Assembly (NCBI GenBank): GCA_902559345.1
Contig: CACEHH010000003.1
Coordinates: 1,316 to 65,315 of the forward strand
From: an uncultured SAR86 cluster bacterium
GTDB lineage: Bacteria > Pseudomonadota > Gammaproteobacteria > Magnimaribacterales > D2472
Length of the DNA stretch: 64,000 nucleotides
Reading direction: 5' to 3'
Of the stretch, positions 2,908 through 61,943 are shown piece by piece. The position numbers and the translations under genes were made by a program. The notes below the pieces were generated by a model, which worked only from the letters and a program-made list of their open reading frames with translations, was not told the DNA's origin and did not search any database. Every line of letters starts with the position of its first letter. The first letter of the stretch is position 1.

Positions 2908-3001
2908 TTTTTTGCTTATCTAGCCCCTATTTTAGATGTGAATACTCTATGTTAATTAAGGCTATATTTTACCATATTTATAAGGCAATTTTTGGGGTAA
3001 T

Positions 3002-4390
3002 TTACTCTTTAAATTCTGATACAAGTCCACCAATAGATTCTTTTGCATCACCAAAAAGCATCCTAGCATTTTCTTTAAAAAAGAGAGGATTTTGAACACC
3101 CGCAAATCCAGACGACATAGAACGTTTAAGAACAAATACAGTTTTAGCATTATGCACTTCTATTATTGGCATCCCGTATATAGGGCTGCCCGGTTCTTCT
3201 GTAGCAGATGGATTTACAACATCATTTGCTCCTATAACAACAGCAACATCCACAGTATCCATCATGGGATTTACATCATCTGGTTCAACTAAAACATCAT
3301 AAGGAACATTTGCCTCAGCTAATAAAACATTCATATGTCCTGGCATTCTTCCGGCAACTGGATGTATTCCATATTTAACTTCGGTACCGTTAGATTCAAG
3401 AAGCTCTCCAAGCTCTCTAACTACATGTTGAGCTTGAGCTACAGCCATACCATAACCAGGAATGACTAATACAGAACTAGCGTTTTCAAGAATTAAATAT
3501 GCATCTGATACATTGATAGGTTTTACTTCTCCAACTTCTTCTGATTTGGAGTTTGAAGATGATGAAGCATATCCAATAAATAGTATATTGCCAATTGATC
3601 TATTCATGGCTTTAGCCATTATTATTGTCAAAATTAACCCGCTTGCACCAACTAAGGATCCAGCAACTATAAGAACATTATTTGTAAGCAAGAGTCCTGC
3701 AAAAGCTGCTGCTATACCAGAAAAGGAATTTAACAAAGAAATCACCACTGGCATATCTCCTCCACCAATTGGCATTACAAATCCAATTCCTCCAAGTAAA
3801 GTGAAGATAAGCAAGATTGTGAAGAAATCAAAAGATGGAGGAATTAAGTATGTTATAGATGCTGAATAAATTAAATAAATTAAAGAAAGATAGAAAATTG
3901 TTGTAAATAATTTAGTAATCAGTGAAGTTTTCTGTATTTTTAGTTTCTCTGATAATTTGCCATACGCAACTATACTACCTGAGAATGTAATACCCCCTAT
4001 ATAAGTAGTAATCATTATCAATACATATTGAAATGCATTATCTGGAACAGAGTTAAATTCAGACCAAGCAATAAAGAAAGTTGCTAAGCCTCCAAATCCG
4101 TTAAAGAGTGCAACCATTTCTGGTATTGAGGTCATCTTAACTTTTAATGCTATTAATGAACCAATTAATGCCCCAACTCCTATTCCTGCAAAAATTAGAT
4201 AAATATTAACTTCAATCTTAGGATCTATAAATGTTATTAGAACTGCAATGAACATCGCCAGAGCAGATAAAAAATTACCTTTTACAGCTGTCTCTTCCTT
4301 GCCTAGCATCTTAATTCCTGAAATAAACAATATAGATGAAGCTATATATATTAGATTTTGGAATGTAGAAATATTTTCTAACATGCTCAT
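3002..4390 (-). CDS. pntB: NAD(P) transhydrogenase subunit beta
   Basis: 462 aa. Multi-TM N-terminal half plus a C-terminal NADP(H)-binding dIII domain (GYGMAVAQAQH, HPVAGRMPGHMNVLLAEA, VIGANDVVNP). Confidence 0.95.
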   Translation of the reverse strand: MSMLENISTFQNLIYIASSILFISGIKMLGKEETAVKGNFLSALAMFIAVLITFIDPKIEVNIYLIFAGIGVGALIGSLIALKVKMTSIPEMVALFNGFGGLATFFIAWSEFNSVPDNAFQYVLIMITTYIGGITFSGSIVAYGKLSEKLKIQKTSLITKLFTTIFYLSLIYLIYSASITYLIPPSFDFFTILLIFTLLGGIGFVMPIGGGDMPVVISLLNSFSGIAAAFAGLLLTNNVLIVAGSLVGASGLILTIIMAKAMNRSIGNILFIGYASSSSNSKSEEVGEVKPINVSDAYLILENASSVLVIPGYGMAVAQAQHVVRELGELLESNGTEVKYGIHPVAGRMPGHMNVLLAEANVPYDVLVEPDDVNPMMDTVDVAVVIGANDVVNPSATEEPGSPIYGMPIIEVHNAKTVFVLKRSMSSGFAGVQNPLFFKENARMLFGDAKESIGGLVSEFKE

Positions 4391-4665: not shown

Positions 4666-5783
4666 TATTTAAACCTCTCATTAGTAATTTTCCCATCAAA
4701 CACCAATACGCTACTTTGGATTATTTCATCTTCAAAATCAAAATTAATAGTTGCTGATTCTTTATTATAAAAATCAGAAATCCAGTTATTATAATTATTA
4801 GATAAAGCTAAAGAAGCATGGCTTGAAACCTTTGATGCTAAGTTCGATATCCCTATTATTTTAATTCCATTCCTATCTATTACTTTATCAACCTCGGAGC
4901 CCTCAACATTTCCCCCTGTCTCAACTGCCATATCAAAAATTACACTTCCAGGTTTCATTAAATCTATAGTTTTATTATCAATCAAAAGCGGTGCTGGTCT
5001 TCCAAAAAGTTGAGCAGTGGTAATTACGATATCCGATCTTTCGCATACCTTCGTTTGAAGCTCTTTCTGTTTATTAATTTGTTCCTCTGTTAATTCTTTA
5101 GCGTAACCCTGATCAGTTTCACCAGTTTCTCCTAAATCAATTTTTACAAATTTTGCACCTAATGAATTAACTTGTTCTTCAACCACATCTCTTGTATCAA
5201 AAGCCTCAACTCTAGCACCCAATCTTTTGGCTGTTGCAATAGCCTGAAGGCCAGCAACACCAACACCAATAACAAAAACCTTTGCAGGTTTTAAAGTACC
5301 GGCTGCCGTCATCATCATTGGCAATGCTGTTGAAAGATGTTTTGCGGATTCTATAACCGCAACATATCCAGCTAAGTTTGCCTGAGAGCTCAAAACATCC
5401 ATCTTTTGAGCTCTAGTAATTCTAGGAATAAATTCCATACTAACAAGGTTAATCTTTGATTTTGAACATAAATTAATTAATTCTTGATTATTAAAAGGAT
5501 TAACCATTCCTAAAATAGTAGAATTTGATTTGACTTGGTTAACTTCGTCTCGAATTAAAGCTTGATTAGTAATTATGAGATCTCCATTTTCTAAACATTC
5601 ATCTCTAGTATGTTTTTTTAAACCTGTGTCTGCAAAAACTTTGTCACTCACATTAATACCATCACCAATTCCTTCTTCAAACCAAATCTCAATATCGAGG
5701 TTTAATAATGTATTTATTGTCTCTATATGAATTGGAGACCTGTTGTCAGAAGAAATATTTGATTTTAATGCAGCTATTATCAC
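4665..5783 (-). CDS. pntAA: NAD(P) transhydrogenase alpha subunit part 1 (soluble dI domain)
   Basis: 372 aa with an alanine-dehydrogenase/PNT fold and the Rossmann motif VIGVGVAGLQAIATAKRLGA. Confidence 0.92.
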   Translation of the reverse strand: MIIAALKSNISSDNRSPIHIETINTLLNLDIEIWFEEGIGDGINVSDKVFADTGLKKHTRDECLENGDLIITNQALIRDEVNQVKSNSTILGMVNPFNNQELINLCSKSKINLVSMEFIPRITRAQKMDVLSSQANLAGYVAVIESAKHLSTALPMMMTAAGTLKPAKVFVIGVGVAGLQAIATAKRLGARVEAFDTRDVVEEQVNSLGAKFVKIDLGETGETDQGYAKELTEEQINKQKELQTKVCERSDIVITTAQLFGRPAPLLIDNKTIDLMKPGSVIFDMAVETGGNVEGSEVDKVIDRNGIKIIGISNLASKVSSHASLALSNNYNNWISDFYNKESATINFDFEDEIIQSSVLVFDGKITNERFK

Positions 5784-5949
5784 GATTTTAATTTCTGAAA
5801 TTATGTAGTGAATTTAATCTTAATAGCTCATTTAAGTCAAACAAATTAAAAAATCAATGATATGCGCATTGGCTCGGCATATTGGTTGTAGTTTTGCTAC
5901 AAAATAAATATTTTTATTTATTCTTAATTAAATTTATAAGGGTTAGAAT

Positions 5950-6651
5950 ATGCCAATGGCTAACATAGACGATCAAGAAATTAAAAAATTTTCTGATATT
6001 GCCAAGGATTGGTGGAATGAAGATGGTGATTTCAAACCTTTGCATATAATAAACCCTCTTAGAGCAAATTATATTAAAAGCAAAGCTAAATTAGAGGGGA
6101 AAAAGGTTTTAGATGTAGGTTGTGGTGGTGGACTTCTTTCAGAAGCGTTGCATGATTTTGGTGCAGATGTGACTGGGATTGATGCTGCTGGTCCTGGTAT
6201 AGAAGTAGCTAAAATTCATGCAAAAAATGATAATAAGAATATAAAATATTTTGAAATAACAGCTGAAGAACTTAATCTTAAGGAATCAGGATCTTTTGAC
6301 ATTGTTACCTGTCTTGAAGTCTTAGAACATGTACCTGACCCTAAATCACTTGTTGCAACATGCATAGATCTTCTTAAACCTGGAGGAGCATTGTTCTTGT
6401 CAACAATAAATAAAAATCCTAGATCATGGATCACAGCTATAGTTGGGGCTGAATATATTTTCAACCTTCTTCCAAAAGGAACTCATGAATTTGATAAATT
6501 TATAAAACCATCTGTATTAGCAAAATATGTAAGGGAAGCTAATGCGGAACTAATAGAAACTAAGGGTATGTTTTATAATCCTTTAACTCATAAGGCCAAT
6601 CTAAATAATGACCTTGGTGTAAATTATTTAATGTATGCAAAAAAACCATAA
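5950..6651 (+). CDS. ubiG: Bifunctional 3-demethylubiquinol / 2-polyprenyl-6-hydroxyphenol O-methyltransferase
   Basis: 233 aa. N-terminus KFSDIAKDWWNEDGDFKPLHIINPLR, SAM motif VLDVGCGGGLLSE, and LKPGGALFLSTINKN. Confidence 0.9.
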   Translation: MPMANIDDQEIKKFSDIAKDWWNEDGDFKPLHIINPLRANYIKSKAKLEGKKVLDVGCGGGLLSEALHDFGADVTGIDAAGPGIEVAKIHAKNDNKNIKYFEITAEELNLKESGSFDIVTCLEVLEHVPDPKSLVATCIDLLKPGGALFLSTINKNPRSWITAIVGAEYIFNLLPKGTHEFDKFIKPSVLAKYVREANAELIETKGMFYNPLTHKANLNNDLGVNYLMYAKKP

Positions 6652-7297
6652 AACAAAATTAGTTTTATTCGATTTAGATGGAACTTTGATAGATACGGCG
6701 CCTGATTTCTTAATTTCATTGAACAATGTTCTCAGTAATCATTCTAGGGAAAATGTAACTATGGAAAAAATAAGGCCTCATATATCAGAAGGATCATCCA
6801 AATTAATTAAATTATTCTTTGAAATTAATGAAGAGCATATGAGTTTTGAACAATATAAAAATGAGTTTTTGAATGAATATTCATCAAACCTAACAAAAAG
6901 TTCAAGACTGTTTGATGGAATGGAAACAATAATAGAATATCTAAATGATAATGGGATTATGTTTGGAGTAGTAACAAATAAATATCATGAATATGCCGAG
7001 CCAATAATTAATTCATTCCCTGAACTGCAGACTATTAAAATTTTAGTGTGTCCTGACCACGTAAGCATCTCTAAGCCGGATCCAGAAGGCATTCTACTTG
7101 CATGTAGTAAATTAAAAGTTAGTCCTAAAGATGCTGTATATCTTGGCGATCACATTAATGATTTAAAAGCAGGTCTCGCTGCTGGCACAGATGTAATTGG
7201 TTGCTTATACGGTTATTCACTTGAAGAAGTTGATATTAATAATCTCAAGTGTAAATCTGTTAATAGTGTTTCTGAAATAACTTCTAATATTAATTAA
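6635..7297 (+). CDS. HAD-superfamily phosphatase (phosphoglycolate phosphatase / MupP-like)
   Basis: 220 aa. HAD motif I is FDLDGTLIDTAPD and the C-terminal motif is LGDHINDLKAGLAAG. It occupies the position after ubiG, as in the Pseudomonas ubiG-mupP-SDR arrangement. Confidence 0.75.
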   Translation: MQKNHKTKLVLFDLDGTLIDTAPDFLISLNNVLSNHSRENVTMEKIRPHISEGSSKLIKLFFEINEEHMSFEQYKNEFLNEYSSNLTKSSRLFDGMETIIEYLNDNGIMFGVVTNKYHEYAEPIINSFPELQTIKILVCPDHVSISKPDPEGILLACSKLKVSPKDAVYLGDHINDLKAGLAAGTDVIGCLYGYSLEEVDINNLKCKSVNSVSEITSNIN

Positions 7298-8046
7298 TGG
7301 AAATAGACAAAAATAATCTTAATAAAAAAAATATATTGGTAACTGGCGCTTCTAATGGTATTGGAAAGTCTCTTGCAATTAATTTAAGCAAATTAGGTGC
7401 GAATATACTTATGCTATCAAGAAATGAAGTAGAGTTAGATTCAATTTACGATGAGATTAAAGAAAAATATAAAACTGATCCATGCATTTTAAAATGTGAC
7501 TTAGAAAATCTTGATGACAGTAAATCACAAGAAATAGTTAATATTATTTTAGATAACTATAAAGGTCTTGATGCAATAATACATAACGCATCAGTTCTTG
7601 AAAAAATGTCTCATATTCAAAGTTATGATTCGAAAACATGGGAGAAAATATTAAAAATAAATTTAACTAGTTCATTTATGCTTTCAAAACATCTAATTCC
7701 TTTAATGCAATCTTCATCCAACCCTAGAATAATTTTTACAACCTCGAGTGTTGGGAATAAAGGCAAGGCATTTTGGGGGGCATATTCAGTTTCAAAGGCT
7801 GGCATTAATGCTCTGTCTGAAATATTAGCAGACGAATTAGAATCAATCTCAAATATCAAAATATTTAACTTCAACCCCAAAGCAACTCAAACTTCTATGA
7901 GAGCGCTTGCATATCCAGCAGAAAATCCTGTATTAGTTAAAAAACCTGACGATCTTTTTGATTACTATTTATGGATGCTTTCTGAAGAAAGCTCTGATTC
8001 AAAAAATACATACATAGAGTTTGATGAAAATAATGCTTTCATATAG
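7297..8046 (+). CDS. Short-chain dehydrogenase/reductase, YciK-like
   Basis: 249 aa. TGASNGIGKS cofactor motif, NAS, and catalytic YSVSKAG. It is the third gene of the ubiG-HAD-SDR trio. Confidence 0.8.
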   Translation: MEIDKNNLNKKNILVTGASNGIGKSLAINLSKLGANILMLSRNEVELDSIYDEIKEKYKTDPCILKCDLENLDDSKSQEIVNIILDNYKGLDAIIHNASVLEKMSHIQSYDSKTWEKILKINLTSSFMLSKHLIPLMQSSSNPRIIFTTSSVGNKGKAFWGAYSVSKAGINALSEILADELESISNIKIFNFNPKATQTSMRALAYPAENPVLVKKPDDLFDYYLWMLSEESSDSKNTYIEFDENNAFI

Positions 8047-8650
8047 TTACATTCTCCTCTTCTAGAGTCCTCCACATATATAAGCACATATAACTCCTAA
8101 ATGGGCTAAATAACTCATAAAAGCTAGTATTGTATTTTTTTGATGAGAACATTTTAATATGGGCATTTTTAAGTCCTAAATCTAGATATGAAAAAACATC
8201 TGGATCGCCTAAATAAAATATTCTTGACATCTCAATAGACCAAGGCCCTATGCCCTTTATTTTTATTAAGAATTCATACAAGTCATCAGCAGGCATCTTT
8301 TTCAATTGTTTTTTAGTAATTTTAATTAGCTCTTTATTGAAAATAATTCCATTTAGATACCCGATCTTTTGCCTAGATAGACCAGCTTCTTTAAACTTCT
8401 TATTTAATTTTTCATTAATTTTTTTGTATTTGTTATCTTTTAGAATTAATTCTGTTCTTTTCCAAATTGCAGCTGCGGATTTAACTGATAATTGCTGACC
8501 GACAATAATCTTTGAAAGATGATCAACAAATTTCATATTTGAAGTTCTAATATTCAAAGGGCCAACCTTCTTAATATGATTTGCGAATTGATTAAAGTTT
8601 AATTCAAGAGATTTTTTATATAGAAAATCATATGCACGTTTATGTTCCAT
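8039..8650 (-). CDS. DNA-3-methyladenine glycosylase II family (HhH-GPD, AlkA-like)
   Basis: 203 aa. Helix-hairpin-helix/GPD region IKGIGPWSIEMSRIFYLGDPDVFSYLDLGLKNA. Confidence 0.7.
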   Translation of the reverse strand: MEHKRAYDFLYKKSLELNFNQFANHIKKVGPLNIRTSNMKFVDHLSKIIVGQQLSVKSAAAIWKRTELILKDNKYKKINEKLNKKFKEAGLSRQKIGYLNGIIFNKELIKITKKQLKKMPADDLYEFLIKIKGIGPWSIEMSRIFYLGDPDVFSYLDLGLKNAHIKMFSSKKYNTSFYELFSPFRSYMCLYMWRTLEEENVTI

Positions 8651-9365
8651 AATTTTTTAAAGAATCTATCTCTTTATTTGATAATTCAATACATTGTCCC
8701 CTTTTTAAACTTGAAGGTAAGAATATTGGTCCAAATCTTGTTCTTTTTAGCCTGCTTACTTCTAAATCCACTGCATTAAATAATTTCCTTACTTCTTTAT
8801 TCTTGCCGGACATGAGACAAACTGAAAACCATTGGTTAGAAGAAATTTTTTCTCCTTCGACAATGTCTGAAAGTTTGTATATGTCACCATCTATTGTTAT
8901 TCCTGAGAGCATTTGCTTCCTTTTTTCTGAAGTAAAATTACCTCTAGCTCTTACCAAATATTCTCTATCAATCATTGAAGAGGGATGCATGCAAAAATTT
9001 GCAAAATTTCCATCATTAGTAAAAAGCATTAAACCTGAAGAATTAATATCAAGTCTACCAATAGATATCCATCTTACTTTTGATTTACCTGAAGGTAAAA
9101 AATCAAAAACTATTGGAATATTTTTTTCTCTTTTTGAAGAAGACAAGACTTTTTCTGGTTTATTAAGAATCAATAACTTTGTCTCTGATTCTGTGTAAGT
9201 AATTATTTTACCTTCATACTCGATAATATCATCTTGATGAACTACGCTTCCTATTTCAGCAATTTTACCATTCAAAGTAATCTGATTTGACTTTATTAAG
9301 TTTTCACAATATCTTCTTGAACCAATCCCAGATTTAGCTAAAAATTTCTGCAGTCTTTCTGCCAT
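8640..9365 (-). CDS. rluB: 23S rRNA pseudouridine synthase B (RsuA/RluB family)
   Basis: 241 aa. S4 domain ERLQKFLAKSGIGSRR and catalytic region IGRLDINSSGLMLFTNDG. It lies downstream of scpA-scpB, as in many Gammaproteobacteria. Confidence 0.85.
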   Translation of the reverse strand: MAERLQKFLAKSGIGSRRYCENLIKSNQITLNGKIAEIGSVVHQDDIIEYEGKIITYTESETKLLILNKPEKVLSSSKREKNIPIVFDFLPSGKSKVRWISIGRLDINSSGLMLFTNDGNFANFCMHPSSMIDREYLVRARGNFTSEKRKQMLSGITIDGDIYKLSDIVEGEKISSNQWFSVCLMSGKNKEVRKLFNAVDLEVSRLKRTRFGPIFLPSSLKRGQCIELSNKEIDSLKNYGT

Positions 9366-9368
9366 TTC

Positions 9369-9926
9369 TTAGACAGCTTGAGAAAAAATATCATTTTCAG
9401 CAGTCTCTATGATTTGAGGTAGATCAGGTAGTTCAGAAATATTTTTTAAATTTAAATCATCTAGAAAATCTTTTGTAGTCACATAAAGAGCTGGTCTTCC
9501 TGGAACATCTCTGTACCCAGAAACCTTTACCCAGTTTCTTTCCAATAAAGATCTGATACTTCTAGTGCTAACGGTAACACCTCGAATATCTTCAATATCA
9601 CCTCTCGTTACAGGTTGCTTATATGCAATAATTGAAATAGTTTCCATTAAAGCTTTTGAAATTCTTGGTGTTTTATCATCCCAAAGACTACTTAAGCAAG
9701 CGCTATGATCTTGTTTTATTTGAAGCCTATACCCCGACGCAACATCTTGAACCTCTATTGCTGTGTTTGCATATCTTTCTTCAAGAAAATTTAATGATTT
9801 TTTAATATCAGAAAGATCAGCTTCGATCCCATTGTTTTCAAAAATATTCTTCATCTCAGATAGTCGAATTGGCCTTCCAGCACCAAAAAGCAATGCCTCA
9901 ATAGAATTTACTAAGTTAATATTCAA
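9369..9926 (-). CDS. scpB: Segregation and condensation protein B
   Basis: 185 aa. IEALLFGAGRPI N-terminus, ETISIIAYKQPVTRGDIEDIRGV, and GRPALYVTTKDFL. Confidence 0.88.
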   Translation of the reverse strand: MNINLVNSIEALLFGAGRPIRLSEMKNIFENNGIEADLSDIKKSLNFLEERYANTAIEVQDVASGYRLQIKQDHSACLSSLWDDKTPRISKALMETISIIAYKQPVTRGDIEDIRGVTVSTRSIRSLLERNWVKVSGYRDVPGRPALYVTTKDFLDDLNLKNISELPDLPQIIETAENDIFSQAV

Positions 9927-10739: not shown

Positions 10740-10901
10740 AAGTTTTATCTATTTTAATACAATATATTGTGCATTTCCTTAAAAATGTAATATAAATTCA
10801 AGAATTATTAAATAATAATTTAAACTTTACTGTTTCTATTATCCTGCTTTCATTTAATAATATTCATCCTTTTTAAAATTTGGAATATAAAATATAAAGA
10901 T

Positions 10902-11951
10902 ATGAATTATTCAACTGACAATACTAGGATTATAGATAGAAGAAAAGTTCCTGCTCCATATGAACTAGTAAATAAATATCCAATTAATGATGGAATTGCA
11001 AAACTTGTATATGGAACAAGAAATCAAATCAGTCAAATACTTCATGGCAAAGATGACAGATTATTTGTTGTAGTTGGTCCCTGCTCGATCCATGATCCAG
11101 AAAGTGCTATTGAGTATGCAAATAAATTATTGGCTGTACACAAAGATTTTAGACAGAATTTACTAATAATAATGAGGGTTTACTTCGAGAAGCCAAGAAC
11201 AACTGTGGGTTGGAAAGGTTTAATAAATGATCCTGATATTAATGAAACTTACAATATTGCAAAAGGTGTCGAAATTGCACGGAAGCTTTTAATTGACATT
11301 GCTAATTTAGGCCTACCTGCCGGCACTGAATTCTTAGATCCAATATCTCCACAATATGTTACAGATATCATTTCATGGGGCGCGATCGGAGCAAGAACAG
11401 CTGAAAGCCAAATCCATAGAGAGCTTGCATCAGGATTATCTTGTCCAATTGGAATTAAAAACGGTACAGATGGGAGTTTAAAGGCAGCAATAGATGGAAT
11501 TCAAGCTGCTAATCACTCACATGTTTTTTTAGGTGCAACTAAGGAGGCTGACATTGCTATGCTTAAAACAGCAGGAAATAATGATACTCATATTATTCTT
11601 AGAGGCGGGAAAGTTCCCAACTATGATGAAGTATCAGTAGAAAACACACTCACAGCTCTTAAGGAAGCTGAAATTAATGAGACAATTATGATTGATGCAA
11701 GTCATGGAAATAGTCAAAAAAAGTTTAAACAACAAATACCTGTAATAGAATCTATTTGCAATCAGATAAGTGGTGGCAATGATAATATCAAGGGCGTGAT
11801 GATAGAAAGCCACTTAAAAGAAGGTAATCAAAAAATTAGTGATAATTTAAACTATGGGCAAAGCATTACCGATGCGTGCATGGGCTGGGAAGATACATTG
11901 CTTTGCCTCAAAAAACTTAATGAAGCTATAAATATTAAAAGAGGTAACTAA
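10902..11951 (+). CDS. aroG: 3-deoxy-7-phosphoheptulonate (DAHP) synthase, class I
   Basis: 349 aa. VVGPCSIHDP, KPRTTVGWKGLINDP, and IDASHGNS. The isozyme (Phe/Tyr/Trp-sensitive) cannot be assigned from sequence alone, so the symbol is nominal. Confidence 0.9.
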   Translation: MNYSTDNTRIIDRRKVPAPYELVNKYPINDGIAKLVYGTRNQISQILHGKDDRLFVVVGPCSIHDPESAIEYANKLLAVHKDFRQNLLIIMRVYFEKPRTTVGWKGLINDPDINETYNIAKGVEIARKLLIDIANLGLPAGTEFLDPISPQYVTDIISWGAIGARTAESQIHRELASGLSCPIGIKNGTDGSLKAAIDGIQAANHSHVFLGATKEADIAMLKTAGNNDTHIILRGGKVPNYDEVSVENTLTALKEAEINETIMIDASHGNSQKKFKQQIPVIESICNQISGGNDNIKGVMIESHLKEGNQKISDNLNYGQSITDACMGWEDTLLCLKKLNEAINIKRGN

Positions 11952-11956
11952 TTTAA

Positions 11957-12751
11957 TTGGAGAATAAAAAAAACCTATCTTTTTCAAAAGAAGTAGCAGA
12001 AACATTAGGAATAGAATGCGCAATAATATTAAATTTATTTAAAAATAATAAGTTAGGCAACATTTCTACATATGAAGATCTTCAAAATTCATTAAAAAAA
12101 GAATTATCTTTCATTGATGACACTCTCTTAAATGATTCTATAAATAAATTAATCTCCTTTAATTTAATTGATCTGGATAAAAGTGAAGCAATAATTCAGA
12201 ATAATTTCACGCCAAATAAGAATATAGAATCTAGGCAATTAGATAGTAATTGGGTTCCCTCTTCAGAAACTCTCGACATCATAAATATGGCTGAGATTAC
12301 AAATGACTTTCTAACTCTTAAATTAAAAGAATTTAAGATTTATTGGATAGAAAGAGGGCAGAAAAAAAATAATTGGAATATCTCATTTCTAAATTTCATT
12401 AGAAGAGAATGGGCGAAAGAAAATAATTCTAACAAAAGCCTTCCATACCCTATTGATGAGAAATGGCTTCCTAGTGAAGATGTTTTTGATATTTTAAATT
12501 TATCTAATATAACAAAAGATTCTGCGTTAAAATATTTAAGAGAATTTATTCTATATTGGAAAGATAATGGCGCTGCTTTCTCAACATGGAATTCTAAATT
12601 CATTGATCATGTAAAAAGAAGACATATGATTAATGATAATATAGGTAAAAATGAAAAAGATAAGAAACATTCTGAGCCAGGAAGATATTCAAAAGACTTC
12701 CAGACAAGAAAAAACGACGATAGTTGGGCAAAAGAAATCAACCTTGAGTAA
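11957..12751 (+). CDS. DnaT-like protein with two tandem DnaT-type (primosomal protein I C-terminal) domains
   Basis: 264 aa with a TTG start. Residues 96-152 and 167-222 repeat the pattern W-x-P-S...EF-x2-YW-x3-G-x5-WN-x2-F-x3-[IV]-[KR]R. That matches the E. coli DnaT segment WQPDADFIRL...[25 protein letters not shown] as I remember it. Confidence 0.5.
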   Translation: MENKKNLSFSKEVAETLGIECAIILNLFKNNKLGNISTYEDLQNSLKKELSFIDDTLLNDSINKLISFNLIDLDKSEAIIQNNFTPNKNIESRQLDSNWVPSSETLDIINMAEITNDFLTLKLKEFKIYWIERGQKKNNWNISFLNFIRREWAKENNSNKSLPYPIDEKWLPSEDVFDILNLSNITKDSALKYLREFILYWKDNGAAFSTWNSKFIDHVKRRHMINDNIGKNEKDKKHSEPGRYSKDFQTRKNDDSWAKEINLE

Positions 12752-54785: not shown

Positions 54786-55754
54786 ATGACATTAAATAAA
54801 AAAATAGAGTTACCAAGCAAGCCTGATAAAAAATTTGCTGTTTCTGATGTTTTTGATATTGATTCAAAACTTTCTGTAAAAGGCTTCAACGATAAATCAG
54901 ATTGGGTTCCTGAAATAGATAGTTCTTATGTATTTGATAAAAATACAACATTATCCATATTGGCTGGTTTCGAGCATAACAGAAGAGTTATGGTTCAAGG
55001 GTTTCATGGGACAGGTAAGTCAACACATATTGAACAAATAGCTGCAAGATTAAATTGGCCATGTGTCCGAATTAATCTTGATAGCCATATCAGCAGAATT
55101 GATTTATTAGGAAAGGATGCTATCAAACTAAATGATGGTAAACAAATCACAGAATTTCAAGAAGGGTTATTACCATGGTCAATTCAAAATCCTGTTGCCT
55201 TGGTCTTTGATGAGTATGATGCGGGTCGTCCAGATGTTATGTTTGTAATACAGAGAATACTTGAGGTGGAGGGTAAGCTCACTCTTCTTGATCAAAATAA
55301 AATCTTAACTCCACATCCTTCTTTTAGATTATTTGCAACAACAAACACTGTTGGTCTTGGAGATATGACTGGCTTGTATCACGGAACTCAACAAATTAAT
55401 CAAGGCCAGTTAGATAGATGGCATATTCTTTCGACACTAAACTATCTTAATCCTAAACAAGAATATAAAGTAGTCGCATCCAAATTAAACAGTCTCAAAG
55501 GAGCAAAAAATCAAGAAATATTAATAAATATGATTAAGCTTGCCAACTTAACGAGGTCTGGTTTTGCTAATGGTGATATTTCTACATTAATGTCACCAAG
55601 AACAGTTATTTCGTGGGCTCAGAATTACAAAATATTTAAAGATCTTGTTGATTCATTTAAGTTAAGCTTCTTAAATAAATGTGATGATATTGAAAAACCA
55701 ATTATCTCTGAATATTTTCAACGCTGTTTCGATAAAGAAATTGATGAAATTTAA
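54786..55754 (+). CDS. cobS: CobS-type AAA+ ATPase (aerobic cobaltochelatase small subunit family, MoxR-like)
   Basis: 322 aa. Walker A GFHGTGKST and Walker B LVFDEYDAGRPDV. Length and pairing with a CobT-like vWA protein fit CobS. Confidence 0.8.
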   Translation: MTLNKKIELPSKPDKKFAVSDVFDIDSKLSVKGFNDKSDWVPEIDSSYVFDKNTTLSILAGFEHNRRVMVQGFHGTGKSTHIEQIAARLNWPCVRINLDSHISRIDLLGKDAIKLNDGKQITEFQEGLLPWSIQNPVALVFDEYDAGRPDVMFVIQRILEVEGKLTLLDQNKILTPHPSFRLFATTNTVGLGDMTGLYHGTQQINQGQLDRWHILSTLNYLNPKQEYKVVASKLNSLKGAKNQEILINMIKLANLTRSGFANGDISTLMSPRTVISWAQNYKIFKDLVDSFKLSFLNKCDDIEKPIISEYFQRCFDKEIDEI

Positions 55755-55767
55755 CATAATATAGTTT

Positions 55768-57537
55768 TTGATGGGATGGAATAAACATAGAGAAAGACTC
55801 CATGAGGCAGCCTTTTCATCAGTAAAAGCTATTTCTAATAAAAAAGATTTAACTTCTAGCACTGGCCTATCGCAGAGACCTCCTATTGAAAAAAATATCA
55901 TCATTCCTTCTGCACCCCGGTCATCAAAAGATTTAAATAAATGGAGGGGGGAATCAGACTATCAAGCCTTCTGGCATCTTTTTCATAAAAAAACGAAAGA
56001 GCTGCCCCTAACGTTAAATGCAAGAATGATCTTTAATGAATTGGAGATTTCAAGGGTAGAATTACTTGGTAGCTCTAAATACAAAGGTTCACAAAAGAAT
56101 ATTTCAGAATACCTTAATCAAAGAAGCGCAAATATAGATGATAAGAAATCAATGAGCACTTTGGCTTATGGAGCAAACCTGTGGCTAAAAAATGCTGCAA
56201 GATTTAAATTAAGTGATGAATCTAAGAATATTTTGCAAATATTTAAAGACAAATACAATTTAAATGAATCCATAGAGCTGGTAGCTAAAACATTAGTCGA
56301 TAATATTGACAATCAAATTAAATTTGAGAAATTATCATTAAAATTTCTTCAAAAACTCAATCTTGCTAAAGATATAGCTGATAAAGATAGTGATTCTAAT
56401 TCTGATCATACCCCTGGCACAAATGATGAGCTTGAAAACAACAATATTGAAGAAGAATCTCAGCTAACAGATGAGAATGAAAAAAATATTGAGGACTTTC
56501 AAGGGAATATAGAAGTTGATATTCAAGAATCACTTGAAAATATAGATGACGCATCAATACAAGAAGAAATCGAAGGAGTTTCATATCTTAATAATGAACT
56601 CTATTCAAATTTTAATAATGATTATTCTATATATACTTCAAATTTTGATGAAATAATCGATGCTAAAGATTTAGTGACTAATGATGAATCTATGAGACTG
56701 AGAAACCAATTAGATAATTTAATTAAGCCTCATTTATCAACAATTGGAAAACTAGCGAATAGACTTCAAAGATTGTTATTGGCGAAACAAAATACCAGCT
56801 GGAACTATAACTTAGAAGAAGGAATATTGGATAATGCAAGATTGCATCGAGTTATTGCAAATCCAGGATATCCACTAAGCTTTAAACAAGAGACAGAAAA
56901 TAATTTTAAAGACACTATTGTTACTCTCTTAATTGATAATTCAGGTTCAATGAGAGGAAGATCCATTAGTTTAGCTGCAATATGTGCAGACATTATTGGA
57001 AGTACGCTAGAAAGATGCCAAGTTAAAACAGAAATACTTGGTTTTACAACCAAACATTGGAAAGGTGGAGATTCAAAAAAGCTTTGGGAAATTAATGGCA
57101 GTCGCTCTAATCCTGGAAGATTAAATGATATTAGGCACATAATATATAAAAGTGCTGATAATAGTTGGAGAAGATCCAGAAAATATTTTGGTGCAATGTT
57201 GAGAGAGGGTTTGTTAAAAGAAAATGTTGATGGTGAAGCTCTGGCATGGTCACATGAAAGATTAACTAAAAGATCAGAAGAGAGGAAAATAATGATTGTT
57301 ATATCTGATGGGGCTCCTGTAGATGACAGTACAAATTCAGCAAATAGAGAAGATTTTTTAGACAACCATCTGAAAGAAATTATCTTCAAGATAGAGAATG
57401 AAAGCAATATTGATCTTCAAGCAATTGGTATAGGTCATGATGTAACAAAATACTATAAAAATGCACTTACCATTAATAGAGCTGAAGAACTTGGCGAAGT
57501 TTTATTGGATGAATTGACAAAACTTTTCAATAATTAG
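55768..57537 (+). CDS. cobT: CobT-type protein (N-terminal CobT domain, acidic linker, C-terminal vWA/MIDAS domain)
   Basis: 589 aa. The acidic low-complexity linker spans about 56381..56581. The C-terminal vWA domain has the MIDAS motif LLIDNSGSMRG and ISDGAPVDDST. Confidence 0.78.
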   Translation: MMGWNKHRERLHEAAFSSVKAISNKKDLTSSTGLSQRPPIEKNIIIPSAPRSSKDLNKWRGESDYQAFWHLFHKKTKELPLTLNARMIFNELEISRVELLGSSKYKGSQKNISEYLNQRSANIDDKKSMSTLAYGANLWLKNAARFKLSDESKNILQIFKDKYNLNESIELVAKTLVDNIDNQIKFEKLSLKFLQKLNLAKDIADKDSDSNSDHTPGTNDELENNNIEEESQLTDENEKNIEDFQGNIEVDIQESLENIDDASIQEEIEGVSYLNNELYSNFNNDYSIYTSNFDEIIDAKDLVTNDESMRLRNQLDNLIKPHLSTIGKLANRLQRLLLAKQNTSWNYNLEEGILDNARLHRVIANPGYPLSFKQETENNFKDTIVTLLIDNSGSMRGRSISLAAICADIIGSTLERCQVKTEILGFTTKHWKGGDSKKLWEINGSRSNPGRLNDIRHIIYKSADNSWRRSRKYFGAMLREGLLKENVDGEALAWSHERLTKRSEERKIMIVISDGAPVDDSTNSANREDFLDNHLKEIIFKIENESNIDLQAIGIGHDVTKYYKNALTINRAEELGEVLLDELTKLFNN

Positions 57538-57557
57538 TAATTATTATAAAATGTTAT

Positions 57558-57576
57558 ATGTTTACACTGTAAACAT
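57558..57576. promoter_or_regulatory. Perfect 19-bp palindrome ATGTTTACA-C-TGTAAACAT, candidate operator (or weak hairpin) 18 nt upstream of the diiron oxygenase start
   Basis: Read directly from the sequence. It has 9-bp arms around a single central C and sits in the 57-bp spacer between cobT and the next ORF. Confidence 0.3.
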
Positions 57577-57594
57577 TATTTAGAGAGCTATTCT

Positions 57595-58701
57595 ATGAAG
57601 ATACATAAGCAAGATGGACCACCTGAGGATCTTTTATATTTTGATGAAGATTTAAATCTGACTCAGAAACAAGTAGAGGATGTTGTAGAAATTTTTCATA
57701 CACCTCTTACAGGTGCATATAACTGGGATTACACAGATGCAGATAATCGAATAAAAAAACTCTATGAGCTTGGTAAAGAATTAAACTGGAATGGTTCTAT
57801 TGATCTTAATTGGGATTATTCGCATCCAGCAGATGAAAGAATTATTGAAACTGATGAAGAACTTCCTCATGAAGCTCTTGATGCCTATAACGATCTTTCA
57901 GAAGAAGAAAAAATACTCTTTGATAGGCATAGCACTGCTGAACTTATGAGCCAATTTCTTCATGGAGAGCAAGGTGCTCTTTTAGTTGCTTCACAATTGG
58001 CAAGTTGTGCACCCTCTTATAATGCAAAACTATATGCTGCTTCTCAGACATTTGATGAAGCTCGACATGTCGAGGTTTTTAATAAATATCTTCAAGATAA
58101 AATAGGTATTCATTATCCAATCAATCCTAATTTAAAGTTATTGCTTGACAAAATTCTTACAGATGAAAGATGGGATTTAAAATTTATAGGAATGCAAATA
58201 ATTATTGAAGGGTTAGCATTGGCTGCATTTCAGATGCTTAAATCTATTACAAAAGACCCGTTATTAAAACAATTACTTCATTATGTTGTTCGTGATGAAG
58301 CAAGACATGTAACTTTTGGTATAAATTATTTAGAGGATTTTATTAAGACATTATCGCCTGAAGAAATAGAAGAAAGAGCACAATTTGCATATGAGGCTTG
58401 TGTTATATCAAGAGACAGATTAATTAATACAAAAGCGGAACAAAGATTTCTTAAAATGTCTGAGGATGAAGCAAGAGAATTTTCTTTAAATACTGGAAGT
58501 TTTGAATTATTCAGAAATTTCTTATTTTCTAGAGTAATACCTAATTTATCGAGAATTGGTCTCTTAACTGATTCTGTCAGGCCTAAATTTGAGGCTTTAG
58601 GCTTATTAGAATATGAGCACGCCCCTGATGATTTTGAATGTGATTGGGCGGAAATGAAAAAGCCTTTAGAACAATTTGGACAAATACCTACAACTTTATA
58701 A
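57595..58701 (+). CDS. Ferritin-like diiron-carboxylate oxygenase of unknown substrate (AurF / R2-like superfamily)
   Basis: 368 aa. It carries the canonical E...EXXH...E...EXXH ligand set: HGEQGALLVASQL, FDEARHVEVF, IIIEGLALAAF, and VRDEARHVTFG. Confidence 0.65.
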   Translation: MKIHKQDGPPEDLLYFDEDLNLTQKQVEDVVEIFHTPLTGAYNWDYTDADNRIKKLYELGKELNWNGSIDLNWDYSHPADERIIETDEELPHEALDAYNDLSEEEKILFDRHSTAELMSQFLHGEQGALLVASQLASCAPSYNAKLYAASQTFDEARHVEVFNKYLQDKIGIHYPINPNLKLLLDKILTDERWDLKFIGMQIIIEGLALAAFQMLKSITKDPLLKQLLHYVVRDEARHVTFGINYLEDFIKTLSPEEIEERAQFAYEACVISRDRLINTKAEQRFLKMSEDEAREFSLNTGSFELFRNFLFSRVIPNLSRIGLLTDSVRPKFEALGLLEYEHAPDDFECDWAEMKKPLEQFGQIPTTL

Positions 58702-59506: not shown

Positions 59507-59710
59507 TTGAACTATATTTTTGGGATAATCGCAGTTGCATCTTTATTAATTTTTTTTAATCTTGCAAAGGTAAGAGCCTCTGAAAAACAAAGAAATAGAG
59601 AAAATAAGATAGACTGGTCTATAAGCAGATATCATAATTTTTATAAGGGTTTTTTAGTTCTGGTTGTTGTAGTTTTATTATCTGCTTTGATAATTAGTAT
59701 CTTTATATAA
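59507..59710 (+). CDS. Hypothetical small two-TM membrane protein
   Basis: 67-aa ORF with a TTG start 3 nt after the preceding stop. Two hydrophobic helices flank a basic loop (KVRASEKQRNRENK). There is no homology evidence. Confidence 0.3.
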   Translation: MNYIFGIIAVASLLIFFNLAKVRASEKQRNRENKIDWSISRYHNFYKGFLVLVVVVLLSALIISIFI

Positions 59711-59744
59711 TTTGAAGGTTAAAATATCAGATTAAAGGAATATT

Positions 59745-61943
59745 ATGAATTTAAAAAAAATCAATCTAAGTAAATATTTTATAAGCCTAGCTTTTTTATT
59801 CCCGTTAATAATTGTTAATGCAGATAATCATGCTCCTATAATACAACCTGGAGCACCTGGGAATCCTTCAAAAATTCTTGATGCTAAAGAAGCAACAAAT
59901 ATATCTAATACATCATATATAAAAGCTGATGTTAAATTTCTTCAAGGGATGATTGTTCATCATGAGCAAGCAATTCTTATGTCTAATATGGCAGGTGAAA
60001 GAACAAATAATAAAACGATACTTGATCTTGCTAAAAGAATTGACGTTTCTCAAGCTGATGAAATTAATTTTATGGAAAGCTGGTTAAAACAAAGAAATGA
60101 ATATGCTGATAATTCTCATGAAAATCATCATATGCATAGAAAACATCATATACATGCAAGTCATAATATGCATTTAGATATGGCTGGTATGGCTACACCT
60201 AAGCAACTAGATGATTTAAAAAAATCAAGCAGTACAGATTTTGATAGATTATTCCTTCAGCTAATGATTACTCATCACGATGGCGCATTAGAAATGGTTG
60301 AAGAATTAAAAAAATATCCAGGAAATGCATATGACCCTATTTTAAATGAATTCGTAGCAGACCTTGTGAATGATCAAGGCGTTGAAATAGAGAGAATGAA
60401 TACTATTTTGGTTGATCTCTCAGATGATCCAAGATCTGGACTAGCACCTGGTTTGTATATTGCTGATGAAGCTATATTGAATATGGAATTAATAGTCTCA
60501 CTTAAAAAGCCAACTGGTTTCTTTGATCCTAACAATCCTGAAGCAAAAGGATCAGAAGACTTAACAGAGGACAATGAAAATAAAACTACTGCAGAGGTTT
60601 CAAGATCTCTTCGATCACCAATGCTGTCTTTTGCAAACACCGATATGGCATTCAAAGATAATATTCTTGTTGCAGGAAGTTATCATGGCTTTAATATTTA
60701 TGAACTAAAACCCAATGGGATTCCAAGCCTTGTTTCTTCCGTTGTATGTCCAGGAGGTCAAGGAGATGTATCAATAGTTGATGATTTGCTTATTATGTCT
60801 GTTGAGGAAAATAGAAGCAGAATTGATTGTGGTTTAGAGGGAGTTAATAGAGATTCAAGCCCTAACAGATTTAGAGGTATAAGAATCTTTGATATTTCAG
60901 ATTTAAATAAGCCTAGACAAGTTGGAGCTGTTCAAACATGTAGAGGATCACATACACATTCAGTAGTCTCTAGTTCAGATGAAAAAATTATTGTATATAA
61001 CTCAGGTACTGGTCGTGTTAGAGATAATGAAGAATTATCTGAATGTTTTGGCTGGGATGGCGGAGGAACATCATATTTTACGATTGATGTAATAGAAATA
61101 CCTGTGAATAATCCATCAGAATCAAAGATTGTTAAAAGTCCAGCTGTCTTTATGGATATAGAAACAGGTAGGGTTGCTGGTTTATGGCGTGGTGGAGACC
61201 ATGGAGATGATACTCAAGAAACCTCACCAACTGATCAATGTCATGATATAACTGTGTTTCCTTCCGCAAATATTGCAGCAGGAGCATGTTCAGGTAATGG
61301 AATTTTATTTGATATAACAGATCCATATAATCCTAAGAGATTGGATGTTGTTTCAGATGTTGGTTTCGCTTACTGGCACTCAGCTACTTTTAACAATGAT
61401 GGTACTAAAGTAATTTTTACAGATGAATGGGGCGGCGGAGGCCGCGCAAGATGTCGCGCATGGGATCCTTTAGATTGGGGTGCTGATGCTATATATGACA
61501 TTGTTGATAATAAACTAGAATTTAAAAGCCACTATAAAATGCCTGCTCCTCAATTAGAAACTGAAAACTGTGTTGCTCATAATGGATCAATCATTCCTAT
61601 TCCAAATAGAGATATATTTGTTCAAGCTTGGTATCAGGGTGGTATTTCTATTATGGATTTTACAGACTCTTCTAATCCAAAAGAAATTGCTTATTTTGAT
61701 AGAGGTCCAATACTAGAAGATTTATTAATCACTGGTGGTTATTGGTCAACATATTTTTATGAGGGTTTTATTTATGGAACTGAAATTACTAGAGGTTTAG
61801 ACGTCTTTAGATTAATTCCAAGCGAATATATTAGTAAAAAAGAAATAGAGGCTGCATCTAATGCATTTCCTGCAGTTGGCGATAATGTTTTTAATCCTCA
61901 ACAGCAATTTCCAATGGCATGGCCTGATACTTATTTAGAATAA
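59745..61943 (+). CDS. Secreted fusion protein: DUF305 four-helix domain with His-rich insert plus LVIVD-repeat beta-propeller
   Basis: 732 aa. Signal peptide ...FPLIIVNA/DN. The two DUF305 half-motifs are FLQGMIVHHEQAILMS and FLQLMITHHDGALEMV. The His-rich insert HENHHMHRKHHIHASHNMH lies at 60117..60173. The C-terminal approx 450 aa carry LVIVD-type repeats (GDVSIVDDLLIMSV, CHDITVF, AHNGSIIP) and many conserved-looking Cys/His. Confidence 0.7.
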   Translation: MNLKKINLSKYFISLAFLFPLIIVNADNHAPIIQPGAPGNPSKILDAKEATNISNTSYIKADVKFLQGMIVHHEQAILMSNMAGERTNNKTILDLAKRIDVSQADEINFMESWLKQRNEYADNSHENHHMHRKHHIHASHNMHLDMAGMATPKQLDDLKKSSSTDFDRLFLQLMITHHDGALEMVEELKKYPGNAYDPILNEFVADLVNDQGVEIERMNTILVDLSDDPRSGLAPGLYIADEAILNMELIVSLKKPTGFFDPNNPEAKGSEDLTEDNENKTTAEVSRSLRSPMLSFANTDMAFKDNILVAGSYHGFNIYELKPNGIPSLVSSVVCPGGQGDVSIVDDLLIMSVEENRSRIDCGLEGVNRDSSPNRFRGIRIFDISDLNKPRQVGAVQTCRGSHTHSVVSSSDEKIIVYNSGTGRVRDNEELSECFGWDGGGTSYFTIDVIEIPVNNPSESKIVKSPAVFMDIETGRVAGLWRGGDHGDDTQETSPTDQCHDITVFPSANIAAGACSGNGILFDITDPYNPKRLDVVSDVGFAYWHSATFNNDGTKVIFTDEWGGGGRARCRAWDPLDWGADAIYDIVDNKLEFKSHYKMPAPQLETENCVAHNGSIIPIPNRDIFVQAWYQGGISIMDFTDSSNPKEIAYFDRGPILEDLLITGGYWSTYFYEGFIYGTEITRGLDVFRLIPSEYISKKEIEAASNAFPAVGDNVFNPQQQFPMAWPDTYLE

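Follow-up and report, generated by a model that had tools for sequence, protein, structure and literature searches.

The window analysed here is a stretch of 64,000 nucleotides from an uncultured SAR86 cluster bacterium (assembly GCA_902559345.1, contig CACEHH010000003.1, positions 1,316 to 65,315 of the forward strand), with a G+C content of about 31%. In the surface ocean, few uncultured heterotrophs are as abundant as members of the SAR86 cluster, whose genomes are small. The window carries a single copy of a gene whose product joins an N-terminal DUF305 domain to a predicted seven-bladed beta-propeller of the LVIVD kind. This gene is the fused, or Rosetta-stone, form of a DUF305-propeller two-gene module that bacteria of soil, sediment and sea often carry. 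The original prediction, which was made from the letters of the window, missed both this module and a set of conserved His, Asp and Glu residues, putatively at the mouth of the propeller channel, that is laid out like the metal centre of the hydrolase Sb-PTE.

The open reading frame is as originally predicted, and its features are collected in Table 1. The signal peptide proposed with it is supported by a Sec-like layout at the N-terminus, where the best 12-residue Kyte-Doolittle mean is 2.84, and by a comparable hydrophobic N-terminus in all 61 SAR86 orthologues with enough N-terminal sequence, four of which have a lipobox-like motif. Pfam and NCBIfam searches of the SAR86 fusion protein found no sorting signal and no anchoring domain. 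The protein is probably exported via Sec, and would be periplasmic or released.

Scanning species-representative genomes gave 71 loci. The label of nearly all is SAR86 cluster, and the others are uncultured Gammaproteobacteria or 'Porticoccaceae' metagenome-assembled genomes (MAGs). The fusion is present in 68 of these 71 SAR86-type loci, with full-length matches of 63-93% identity, and marine metagenomes hold more than 8000 near relatives of the protein. Because a 2.2-kb gene has been kept so widely in a streamlined lineage, it likely matters for SAR86 physiology.

Table 1. The fusion gene and the features of its product, in nucleotide positions of the window
Feature	Residues	Position	Strand	Remarks
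Shine-Dalgarno-like AAGGA		59735..59739	+	5 nucleotides 5' of the ATG; direct sequence reading
DUF305-propeller fusion open reading frame	1-732	59745..61943	+	ATG start, 732 residues and stop codon; open reading frame list
Predicted Sec signal peptide MNLKKINLSKYFISLAFLFPLIIVNA	1-26	59745..59822	+	charged/hydrophobic/V-N-A layout; heuristic
N-terminal motif IIQPGAPGNPSK	32-43	59838..59873	+	kept in SAR86 orthologues
DUF305 domain	62-222	59928..60410	+	Pfam PF03713; two helical hairpins giving a four-helix bundle in the model
First MxxHHxxAxxM motif, MIVHHEQAILM		59949..59981	+	M69, H72, H73, M79
His/Met-rich loop between the DUF305 halves	121-149	60105..60191	+	contains the nine-His tract; tail HLDMAGM
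Tract HENHHMHRKHHIHASHNMH		60117..60173	+	19 residues, nine His and two Met
Direct duplication, first copy CATCATATGCAT		60126..60137	+	12 nucleotides, imperfect
Direct duplication, second copy CATCATATACAT		60144..60155	+	18 nucleotides from the first copy
Second MxxHHxxAxxM motif, MITHHDGALEM		60264..60296	+	M174, H177, H178, M184
Conserved junction LSDDPRSGL...KPTGFFD	225-261	60417..60527	+	pLDDT 81-98; includes strand 247-253
Acidic disordered linker	262-291	60528..60617	+	pLDDT <50 at 262-276 and 280-291; poorly conserved
Seven-bladed beta-propeller, LVIVD kind	298-690	60636..61814	+	AlphaFold2 model, pLDDT mostly >90
D300	300	60642..60644	+	start of strand A, blade 1; 85% conserved
D341	341	60765..60767	+	just before strand A, blade 2 (DSSP 342-345); 87%; proposed counterpart of Sb-PTE Glu-201
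H403-T-H405	403-405	60951..60959	+	start of strand A, blade 3; H403 83%, H405 80%; invariant in SAR86
H500-D501	500-501	61242..61247	+	start of strand A, blade 4; H500 89%, D501 91%
H545	545	61377..61379	+	before strand A, blade 5; 92%; proposed counterpart of Sb-PTE His-389
D560-E561, motif FTDEWGGG	560-561	61422..61427	+	B-C loop, blade 5; D560 97%, E561 96%; proposed counterpart of Sb-PTE Glu-407
H612	612	61578..61580	+	in strand A, blade 6; 94%; proposed counterpart of Sb-PTE His-475
C-terminal tail	691-732	61815..61940	+	helix 698-705 (AlphaFold2 model) and conserved NPQQQ motif

The two parts of the fusion protein

The N-terminal part matches the Pfam DUF305 model (PF03713) over positions 1-151 of 151, with E=1.5e-39 and 135.9 bits against a 27-bit cut-off, and both HH half-motifs named in the original prediction are present. 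The four-helix bundle and the copper link suggested there also find support: the AlphaFold2 model has helices at residues 60-86, 90-116, 163-189 and 198-224, with a predicted local distance difference test (pLDDT) mostly of 88-96, and the closest characterised relatives are copper-binding CopM proteins. Sequence matches in the PDB include CopM (5fej, E=7e-9) and the structural-genomics DUF305 proteins 2qf9 and 3bt5. The NCBIfam CopM model (NF049983) gives 75.8 bits (E=2e-21), under its 90-bit cut-off, so that the SAR86 domain is related to CopM but is no equivalog.

Both MxxHH motifs are strongly conserved. Within SAR86 the first-motif residues are each at least 98% conserved and those of the second are invariant, while in 72 module-type DUF305 sequences from non-SAR86 loci M69, H72 and H73 are conserved at 100%, M79 at 96% and the second-motif residues at 97-100%. 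Across the same 72 sequences the residues M69, H72, H73, M79, M110, M146, M149, M174, H177, H178, M184 and M218 are each conserved at 92% or more. Sites rich in Met and His and free of Cys are characteristic of Cu(I) proteins of the periplasm, among them CusF, CopC and CopM, and by analogy the Met/His, Cys-free set of the DUF305 part points to copper.

The likeness to CopM of Synechocystis (sll0788; PDB 5fej, 5ffa-e) includes the same full-length Pfam domain, two MxxHH motifs, a Met/His-rich and Cys-free domain, a disordered His/Met linker between the halves and a signal peptide. CopM is found in the periplasm and partly outside the cell, makes its host copper-tolerant and has a dissociation constant (KD) of 3.7e-16 M for Cu(I) (PMC4335983). 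Cu(II) is bound by its MxxHH motif and, in soaked crystals, by the linker GMMGMHQGHGMMAMD between its halves (PMC11836926). The SAR86 His/Met loop occupies the position of this linker. CopM is a stand-alone protein of 196 residues from a copper-induced copMRS operon, whereas the SAR86 domain is fused to a 440-residue propeller without nearby cop genes, and module-type DUF305 proteins have an extra conserved N-terminal motif, (I/P)(I/V)QPGAPG, which in high-GC metagenome loci recurs as PPIVQPGAPGxPSR in fused and separate module DUF305 proteins alike. Copper is the sole metal demonstrated for the DUF305 fold. It is not the sole metal context reported, however, since the iron-starvation protein ISIP3 of diatoms is likewise defined by DUF305 (PMC7966952).

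The 19-residue tract that splits the DUF305 halves, with its nine His and two Met, is present as described in the original prediction. As a conserved feature it did not hold up, since close orthologues differ here: L001, an orthologue of 88% identity, has IKSNH-HMH in its place, and the nine-His tract is peculiar to this genome. In 63 SAR86 orthologues the loop is always rich in His and Met but varies in sequence and in length (20-39 residues), with 1-9 His and 2-13 Met (medians of 4 each), so that His and Met together make up a median of 32% of the loop against about 5% of the whole protein, in which His accounts for 2.4%. The tail of the loop is conserved across SAR86 as H-M-H-x-x-M-x-G-M-A, and the model leaves residues 125-142 disordered (pLDDT <50). 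The tract contains an imperfect direct duplication, and every one of its His codons is CAT, a combination that suggests loop expansion of a slippage type. On the evidence of its sequence, the nine-His tract is a local expansion of a family-wide loop feature, and neither a fixed site nor pure drift.

For the whole protein, the AlphaFold2 model (113 aligned sequences) has a pLDDT of 85 and a predicted template modelling score (pTM) of 0.82, with a four-helix bundle, an ordered junction, and a propeller whose 27 strands fall into seven groups of four-strand blades plus a closing strand; strand 247-253 of the junction probably closes blade 7. A pTM of 0.82 over 732 residues is beyond the reach of the 440-residue propeller alone, which argues that the DUF305 and propeller domains would hold a fixed mutual placement. 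The top fold match in the PDB is Sb-PTE (5hrm), which takes Foldseek ranks 1 and 2 with E=7e-13 and a target-normalised template modelling score of 0.52. The remaining top matches are generic WD40-like propellers and paraoxonase, and all top matches are propellers; structures of SBP56, NosZ and thiocyanate dehydrogenase are not among the top 50.

When residues 285-732 were searched exhaustively, 2931 cluster representatives matched at E<=1e-3, of which 602 reached E<=1e-30, and propeller identity between phyla is 45-67%. The LVIVD repeats of the original prediction stand in part. In their favour are the seven-bladed model, the NCBI label 'LVIVD repeat-containing protein' on homologues, and matches to Pfam LVIVD (PF08309) in 18 of 30 diverse full-length homologues, five of them at 25.8-40.1 bits against a 20.2-bit cut-off. 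The fusion protein itself has no match to PF08309, even when the C-terminal part is searched alone at E<=10, so its membership is only transitive. The choice-of-anchor B model (NCBIfam TIGR04312) scores 43.8 bits over residues 509-688 only, under its 100-bit cut-off, and gives sub-threshold matches in 29 of 30 relatives; choice-of-anchor B proteins have a variable-type C-terminal sorting signal, whereas the SAR86 protein has none. Both families are of unassigned function, and membership in either therefore explains nothing mechanistically. Methanethiol oxidase (SBP56, PF05694; NF052453) was rejected as an assignment, its match being of 12.8 bits and E=0.05 against a 34-bit cut-off and covering one LVIVD-like strand; one of 30 relatives matches SBP56, at 1.5e-3 (Pfam) and 6e-5 (NCBIfam). 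Relatives of the propeller often carry SLH, CWB2, Ig-like, fn3 or RTX modules, which indicates that they are exported or surface-bound, and the accessory domains of the larger relatives (fn3, CWB2, SLH, Ig-like) are anchoring modules only, with no clue to a substrate.

The DUF305-propeller module outside SAR86

Outside SAR86, a metagenome scan yielded 80 loci with a G+C content of 46-74%, using search patterns that mismatch the SAR86 sequence at two motifs; the loci were scanned with hidden Markov models built from each half, DUF305 and propeller. A DUF305 gene lies directly upstream of the propeller gene on the same strand in 54 of the 80, DUF305 shares the propeller's reading frame as an N-terminal fusion like that of SAR86 in five, and it is adjacent on the opposite strand in four, so that it is fused to or directly beside the propeller gene in 63. 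Four more loci have DUF305 within 1.6-3.2 kb. In the remaining 13 no DUF305 was found by the propeller gene, although five of these have less than 400 nucleotides of upstream flank. The fusion originally predicted from one gene is therefore not confined to SAR86, and it also occurs in the reverse order, propeller then DUF305, in the Actinobacteria Serinicoccus profundi and an Arsenicicoccus MAG. Other arrangements include a divergently transcribed DUF305 neighbour in Agromyces seonyuensis, Streptomyces sp. NBC_00184 and Nonomuraea gerenzanensis, a DUF305 gene downstream of the propeller gene (contig L081), and an upstream DUF305 gene whose stop overlaps the propeller start (contig L079). Egicoccus and two metagenome contigs are without a DUF305 neighbour.

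Where there are two genes, both proteins begin with a hydrophobic N-terminus of their own, and the mature propeller protein starts with DPRxGL...KPxGFFDP, the equivalent of the fusion junction. All-against-all clustering of the open reading frames of the 80 loci found no third conserved gene, the next family being present in four loci. Fusion in both orders, together with adjacency in about 85% of testable loci, is strong evidence for a functional partnership of DUF305 and the propeller; the partnership is probably physical as well. In most bacteria the two would be encoded by separate co-transcribed genes, fused in SAR86 and, independently, in a few other lineages.

Comparable gene arrangements can be found in published work, where they are mentioned in passing. 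Snov_0990/0991 of Starkeya novella are DUF305 and propeller genes 12 bp apart, driven by the extracytoplasmic function sigma factor RpoE1 and induced on tetrathionate (PMC6527743), and MXAN_3416/3417 of Myxococcus xanthus place DUF305 beside a propeller gene in the copper-induced curA operon, both products being lipoproteins (PMC3707914). These propellers are annotated as YVTN and PQQ_2 types and are likened to the SAR86 pair by gene arrangement alone, and neither paper discusses the pairing itself. Searches of the literature on DUF305, LVIVD, choice-of-anchor B and SAR86 found no paper describing a DUF305-propeller pairing as such.

Several of the non-SAR86 loci have individual features. In L084 (Nonomuraea gerenzanensis NZ_LT559118.1, about 6076..9741) two propeller genes, tandem paralogues, come after a DUF305 gene and diverge from it, and the record has three places matching the propeller. 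Locus L078 has DUF305 and propeller in one long open frame at 5307..7755, with the DUF305 part split over two frames; assembly frameshifts have probably interrupted what is an N-terminal fusion. In L079 the pair is followed directly by another propeller gene, unrelated to the first (Pfam Lactonase/SGL type, 2303..3451), which recalls the 'YVTN propeller' by DUF305 in Starkeya novella (PMC6527743). Genes of the cation diffusion facilitator type (cation efflux, PF01545) are present 3-4 kb downstream of the propeller in L077 (11075..12055), which also has an ArsB/CitMHS transporter gene, and in L078 (11905..13152); their occurrence in two unrelated loci may be coincidence or a loose metal-related neighbourhood. 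On the Streptomyces sp. NBC_00184 plasmid (L083), genes for an M56 metallopeptidase and a DUF5134 protein (10802..12414) lie about 2.5 kb from the pair, with PAP2 phosphatase, HAD hydrolase and glycerophosphodiester phosphodiesterase genes nearby.

A candidate metal site and the possible function of the module

The propeller is the more conserved part of the SAR86 protein. Mean column identity is 0.9-0.98 in blades 4-6, the most conserved part of all, 0.76-0.87 in DUF305 and 0.18 in the loop, and all eight Cys and eight propeller His are invariant in SAR86. Conservation in the wider family, calculated from up to 106 cluster representatives per column (59-104 residues per column), is given in Table 1 for the principal polar residues, of which D560-E561 form the family's most conserved acidic pair. 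W667 is 99% conserved and the eight Cys 83-95%, and H314, H486 and H596 are specific to SAR86. In one alignment, N717 of the C-terminal tail is nearly invariant. On the strand map of the model, the innermost strand of each of blades 1-6 has conserved Asp or His at its N-terminal end or immediately in front of it. Such strand ends surround one opening of the central channel in propellers, where the active site usually lies, and the conserved polar residues would thus cluster at the channel mouth.

Sb-PTE, the haloalkylphosphorus hydrolase of Sphingobium sp. TCM1 (5hrm, 5ioj), is a seven-bladed propeller with a binuclear Mn centre. It is exported and has disulfides, as is proposed for the present family, with which it shares LVIVD-like 'GGhxhhDhxDPxxP' strands; the difference is that Foldseek identity is only 11-12% and that the blade register is not fixed by sequence. 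The Mn ligands reportedly assigned by Mabanglo et al. in 2016 are E201, H258, H317, H389, E407 and H475. Comparison over residues 93-298, 316-338, 357-383 and 481-519 of the Sb-PTE sequence found E201, H258, H317, Cys-146 and Cys-242 at the expected positions. H403 is the proposed counterpart of His-258, which likewise precedes MVTISPNGRRVY, and H500 that of His-317 (CHDITVF vs PHEVSIS). In blade order the series D341/H403/H500/H545+E561/H612 parallels the Sb-PTE ligands as carboxylate, His, His, His plus carboxylate, and His, with the second carboxylate following the third His by 16 residues here (H545 to E561) and by 18 in Sb-PTE (H389 to E407). The present family differs from Sb-PTE in its extra conserved D300, H405, D501 and D560.

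Sequence comparison also leads to Sb-PTE. Of the PDB sequences, 5hrm is the best match to the family profile (E=2.7e-4). In this match, the one significant hit to Sb-PTE by sequence (14.4 bits), residues 618-656 are aligned to Sb-PTE 481-519, and its ungapped extension places H612 on Sb-PTE 475; the single-sequence match has E=0.03. What is matched is an LVIVD-like strand; the LVIVD matches of the Sb-PTE fragments themselves are all sub-threshold. From the model and these alignments there is good reason to think that the conserved set may be equivalent to the binuclear ligands of Sb-PTE.

The Cys/His motifs listed in the original prediction are all present, with a further Cys motif, ECFGWDGG (C434), although the Cys among them are probably not metal ligands. 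The eight invariant Cys form four consecutive pairs (335/362, 399/434, 499/515 and 570/609). Such pairing, in an exported protein and with the precedent of Sb-PTE, suggests that they probably form four disulfides, and Cys as metal ligands were set aside accordingly.

The original prediction of a metal-binding or redox enzyme survives in its observations and, in part, in its interpretation, a metal-related role being the best reading. We give about an even chance to an exported metalloenzyme with its catalytic centre at the channel mouth of the propeller and a DUF305 part that captures, delivers or buffers its metal; metal binding by either half, transfer between the halves and catalysis are all things that we infer. 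The propeller would be the working part. Its ring of conserved Asp and His would, with its Asp-Glu pair, make up a metal centre, mono- or binuclear, arranged in the manner of the 4-His/2-carboxylate centre of Sb-PTE, and the eight invariant Cys would form four disulfides. The four-helix bundle would act as a CopM-like metal-binding unit that, by means of its two MxxHH motifs, its floppy His/Met loop and eight conserved Met, captures scarce metal and passes it to the catalytic site, or that buffers or guards that site.

Periplasmic metalloenzymes with a dedicated chaperone gene include MtoX with SCO1/SenC and NosZ with NosL. The DUF305-propeller pair would resemble these systems, MtoX being a copper-dependent SBP56 propeller, in that an exported propeller enzyme whose metal site is lined by His is encoded beside a small exported metal-binding protein, and differs in the fold of the chaperone, which is DUF305 rather than SCO1 or NosL. 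The fusion gene is a new fused variant of the chaperone-plus-enzyme arrangement and not a categorically new system. A broader and more tentative proposal, which we hold to be somewhat improbable as it stands, is that DUF305 is not in the first place a copper-resistance sponge. It would instead be a partner dedicated to inserting or guarding the metal in a large class of exported LVIVD-type propeller metalloenzymes, found in SAR86, Actinobacteria and many bacteria of soil, sediment and sea, with a new metal centre embedded in the propeller. The SAR86 fusion would then be what reveals the pair, and the substrate of the enzyme would matter in soil and surface ocean alike.

Several points weigh against the metalloenzyme reading. 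The Met and His of DUF305 suit soft Cu(I), whereas the His, Asp and Glu of the propeller suit Mn, Fe, Zn, Co or Ni, so simple copper delivery from one to the other is not assured. No copper, phosphate or other telling genes lie near the fusion gene in any SAR86 clade, and at least seven non-SAR86 loci with adequate flank, as well as Egicoccus, are without a DUF305 neighbour. The spatial clustering of the polar residues and the domain interface are deduced from topology and pTM alone. The sequence link to Sb-PTE is one repeat-like stretch of 34-39 residues, with weaker local alignments in other blade registers.

The same mismatch in metal preference would be accommodated by a propeller that is itself an Sb-PTE-like Mn, Zn or Fe hydrolase, acting for example on phosphate esters, with DUF305 guarding it against copper mis-metallation or having a structural or regulatory role. 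Sb-PTE is the best PDB match by structure and by sequence, sets of His and carboxylate are typical of binuclear hydrolases, marine bacteria often have propeller phosphatases (PhoX and beta-propeller phytase, for example), and the conserved Met-rich set of DUF305 fits Cu(I) and not Mn or Zn. The homology to Sb-PTE is nevertheless marginal and its blade register ambiguous, the single Sb-PTE-like gene whose locus was readable has no DUF305 beside it, no pho-regulon or phosphate-related genes were seen near the SAR86 gene, and we know of no precedent for a guard domain of this kind. We consider this explanation unlikely, though it is the one that survives best among the alternatives to the metalloenzyme reading.

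Somewhat less likely again is an enlarged CopM, in which DUF305 and its His/Met loop sequester copper, in the periplasm or extracellularly, or confer resistance and the propeller is a non-catalytic scaffold or an extra binding surface. The sole DUF305 proteins with an experimental characterisation are copper binders that confer tolerance (PMC4335983), a preprint reportedly puts forward a 'metal sponge' model (bioRxiv 10.1101/013581), a DUF305 lipoprotein adjoins a propeller lipoprotein in the copper-induced Myxococcus curA operon (PMC3707914), and the His/Met loop grows and shrinks like a low-specificity binding tract. However, the propeller and not DUF305 is the more conserved half, and its precise polar set is kept from Gammaproteobacteria to Actinobacteria, as is typical of an active site rather than a scaffold. 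In addition, no cop, cus, P-type ATPase or two-component genes were seen near the fusion gene in any SAR86 clade. Free copper is extremely low in the open-ocean habitat of SAR86, and a constitutive core resistance gene would therefore be unexpected in so streamlined a genome.

A non-enzymatic cell-surface or adhesion protein with the propeller as a ligand- or protein-binding platform is the least probable explanation, and a very doubtful one: the LVIVD repeat was first described from cell-surface proteins of archaea and bacteria (PMC2447325), LVIVD proteins have been treated as attachment factors (bioRxiv 10.1101/2022.05.06.490989), and relatives bear the surface modules listed above, but such modules are equally frequent on secreted enzymes, the SAR86 protein has neither anchoring module nor sorting signal, the cross-phylum identity and the near-invariant channel-mouth His, Asp and Glu are unlike adhesins, and the pairing with a metal-binding domain is left unexplained. 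Both the sponge and the adhesin fit the pattern of conservation less well than a metalloenzyme does.

The module brings DUF305 and the LVIVD-type propellers, both families without a known function, together in a single two-component unit that can be tested, and its presence in culturable Actinobacteria (Streptomyces, Agromyces, Nonomuraea, Serinicoccus) makes genetics and biochemistry feasible. Should a DUF305-served metal centre prove to exist in the propeller, DUF305 would gain a physiological role beyond copper tolerance and a new class of exported metalloenzyme would be added, which may bear on trace-metal use by marine bacteria.

Neighbouring genes in SAR86

In the window the fusion gene has CobS/CobT-like, AurF-like, BaxI, Fumble and FA_hydroxylase genes as neighbours. 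SAR86 clades of at least about 72% identity have it between BaxI-like and Fumble-type kinase genes, 3' of the CobS/CobT-like and AurF-like genes, while in more distant clades the neighbours are guaA/guaB or genes for a tail-specific protease, an ABC-F ATPase, a major facilitator superfamily transporter, a DUF3604 protein or a TonB receptor. As the neighbours are unrelated housekeeping genes that differ between clades, without a consistent partner, the operon context gives no clue to function. A TonB-dependent receptor gene (1043 residues, Plug domain) lies directly 5' of the fusion gene on the same strand, at 4774..7905 of locus L059, which represents one distant clade; it was not seen in the other clades.

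A scan for promoters and terminators around the fusion gene was uninformative, promoter-like sites being rarer than in shuffled controls. Between the BaxI-like gene and the fusion gene, a TTG-initiated open reading frame of 67 residues (59507..59710, + strand) has two hydrophobic stretches by eye, and weakly similar frames (48-61% identity) occupy the same position in L025, L026, L029 and L058; the frame could encode a small membrane protein or be there by chance. Further upstream, at 54786..58701 on the + strand, stand consecutive genes for a CobS-like AAA+ ATPase, a CobT-like VWA protein and an AurF-like di-iron oxygenase, an order kept in all SAR86 clades of at least about 72% identity; no further cobalamin genes were seen within the stretch examined around the CobS/CobT-like pair. 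The AurF-like and BaxI-like genes are 56 nucleotides apart in the window, and about 2.3 kb of extra DNA is present between them in SAR86 loci L025-L034, L037, L041, L060, L062-L064, L066-L068 and L070.

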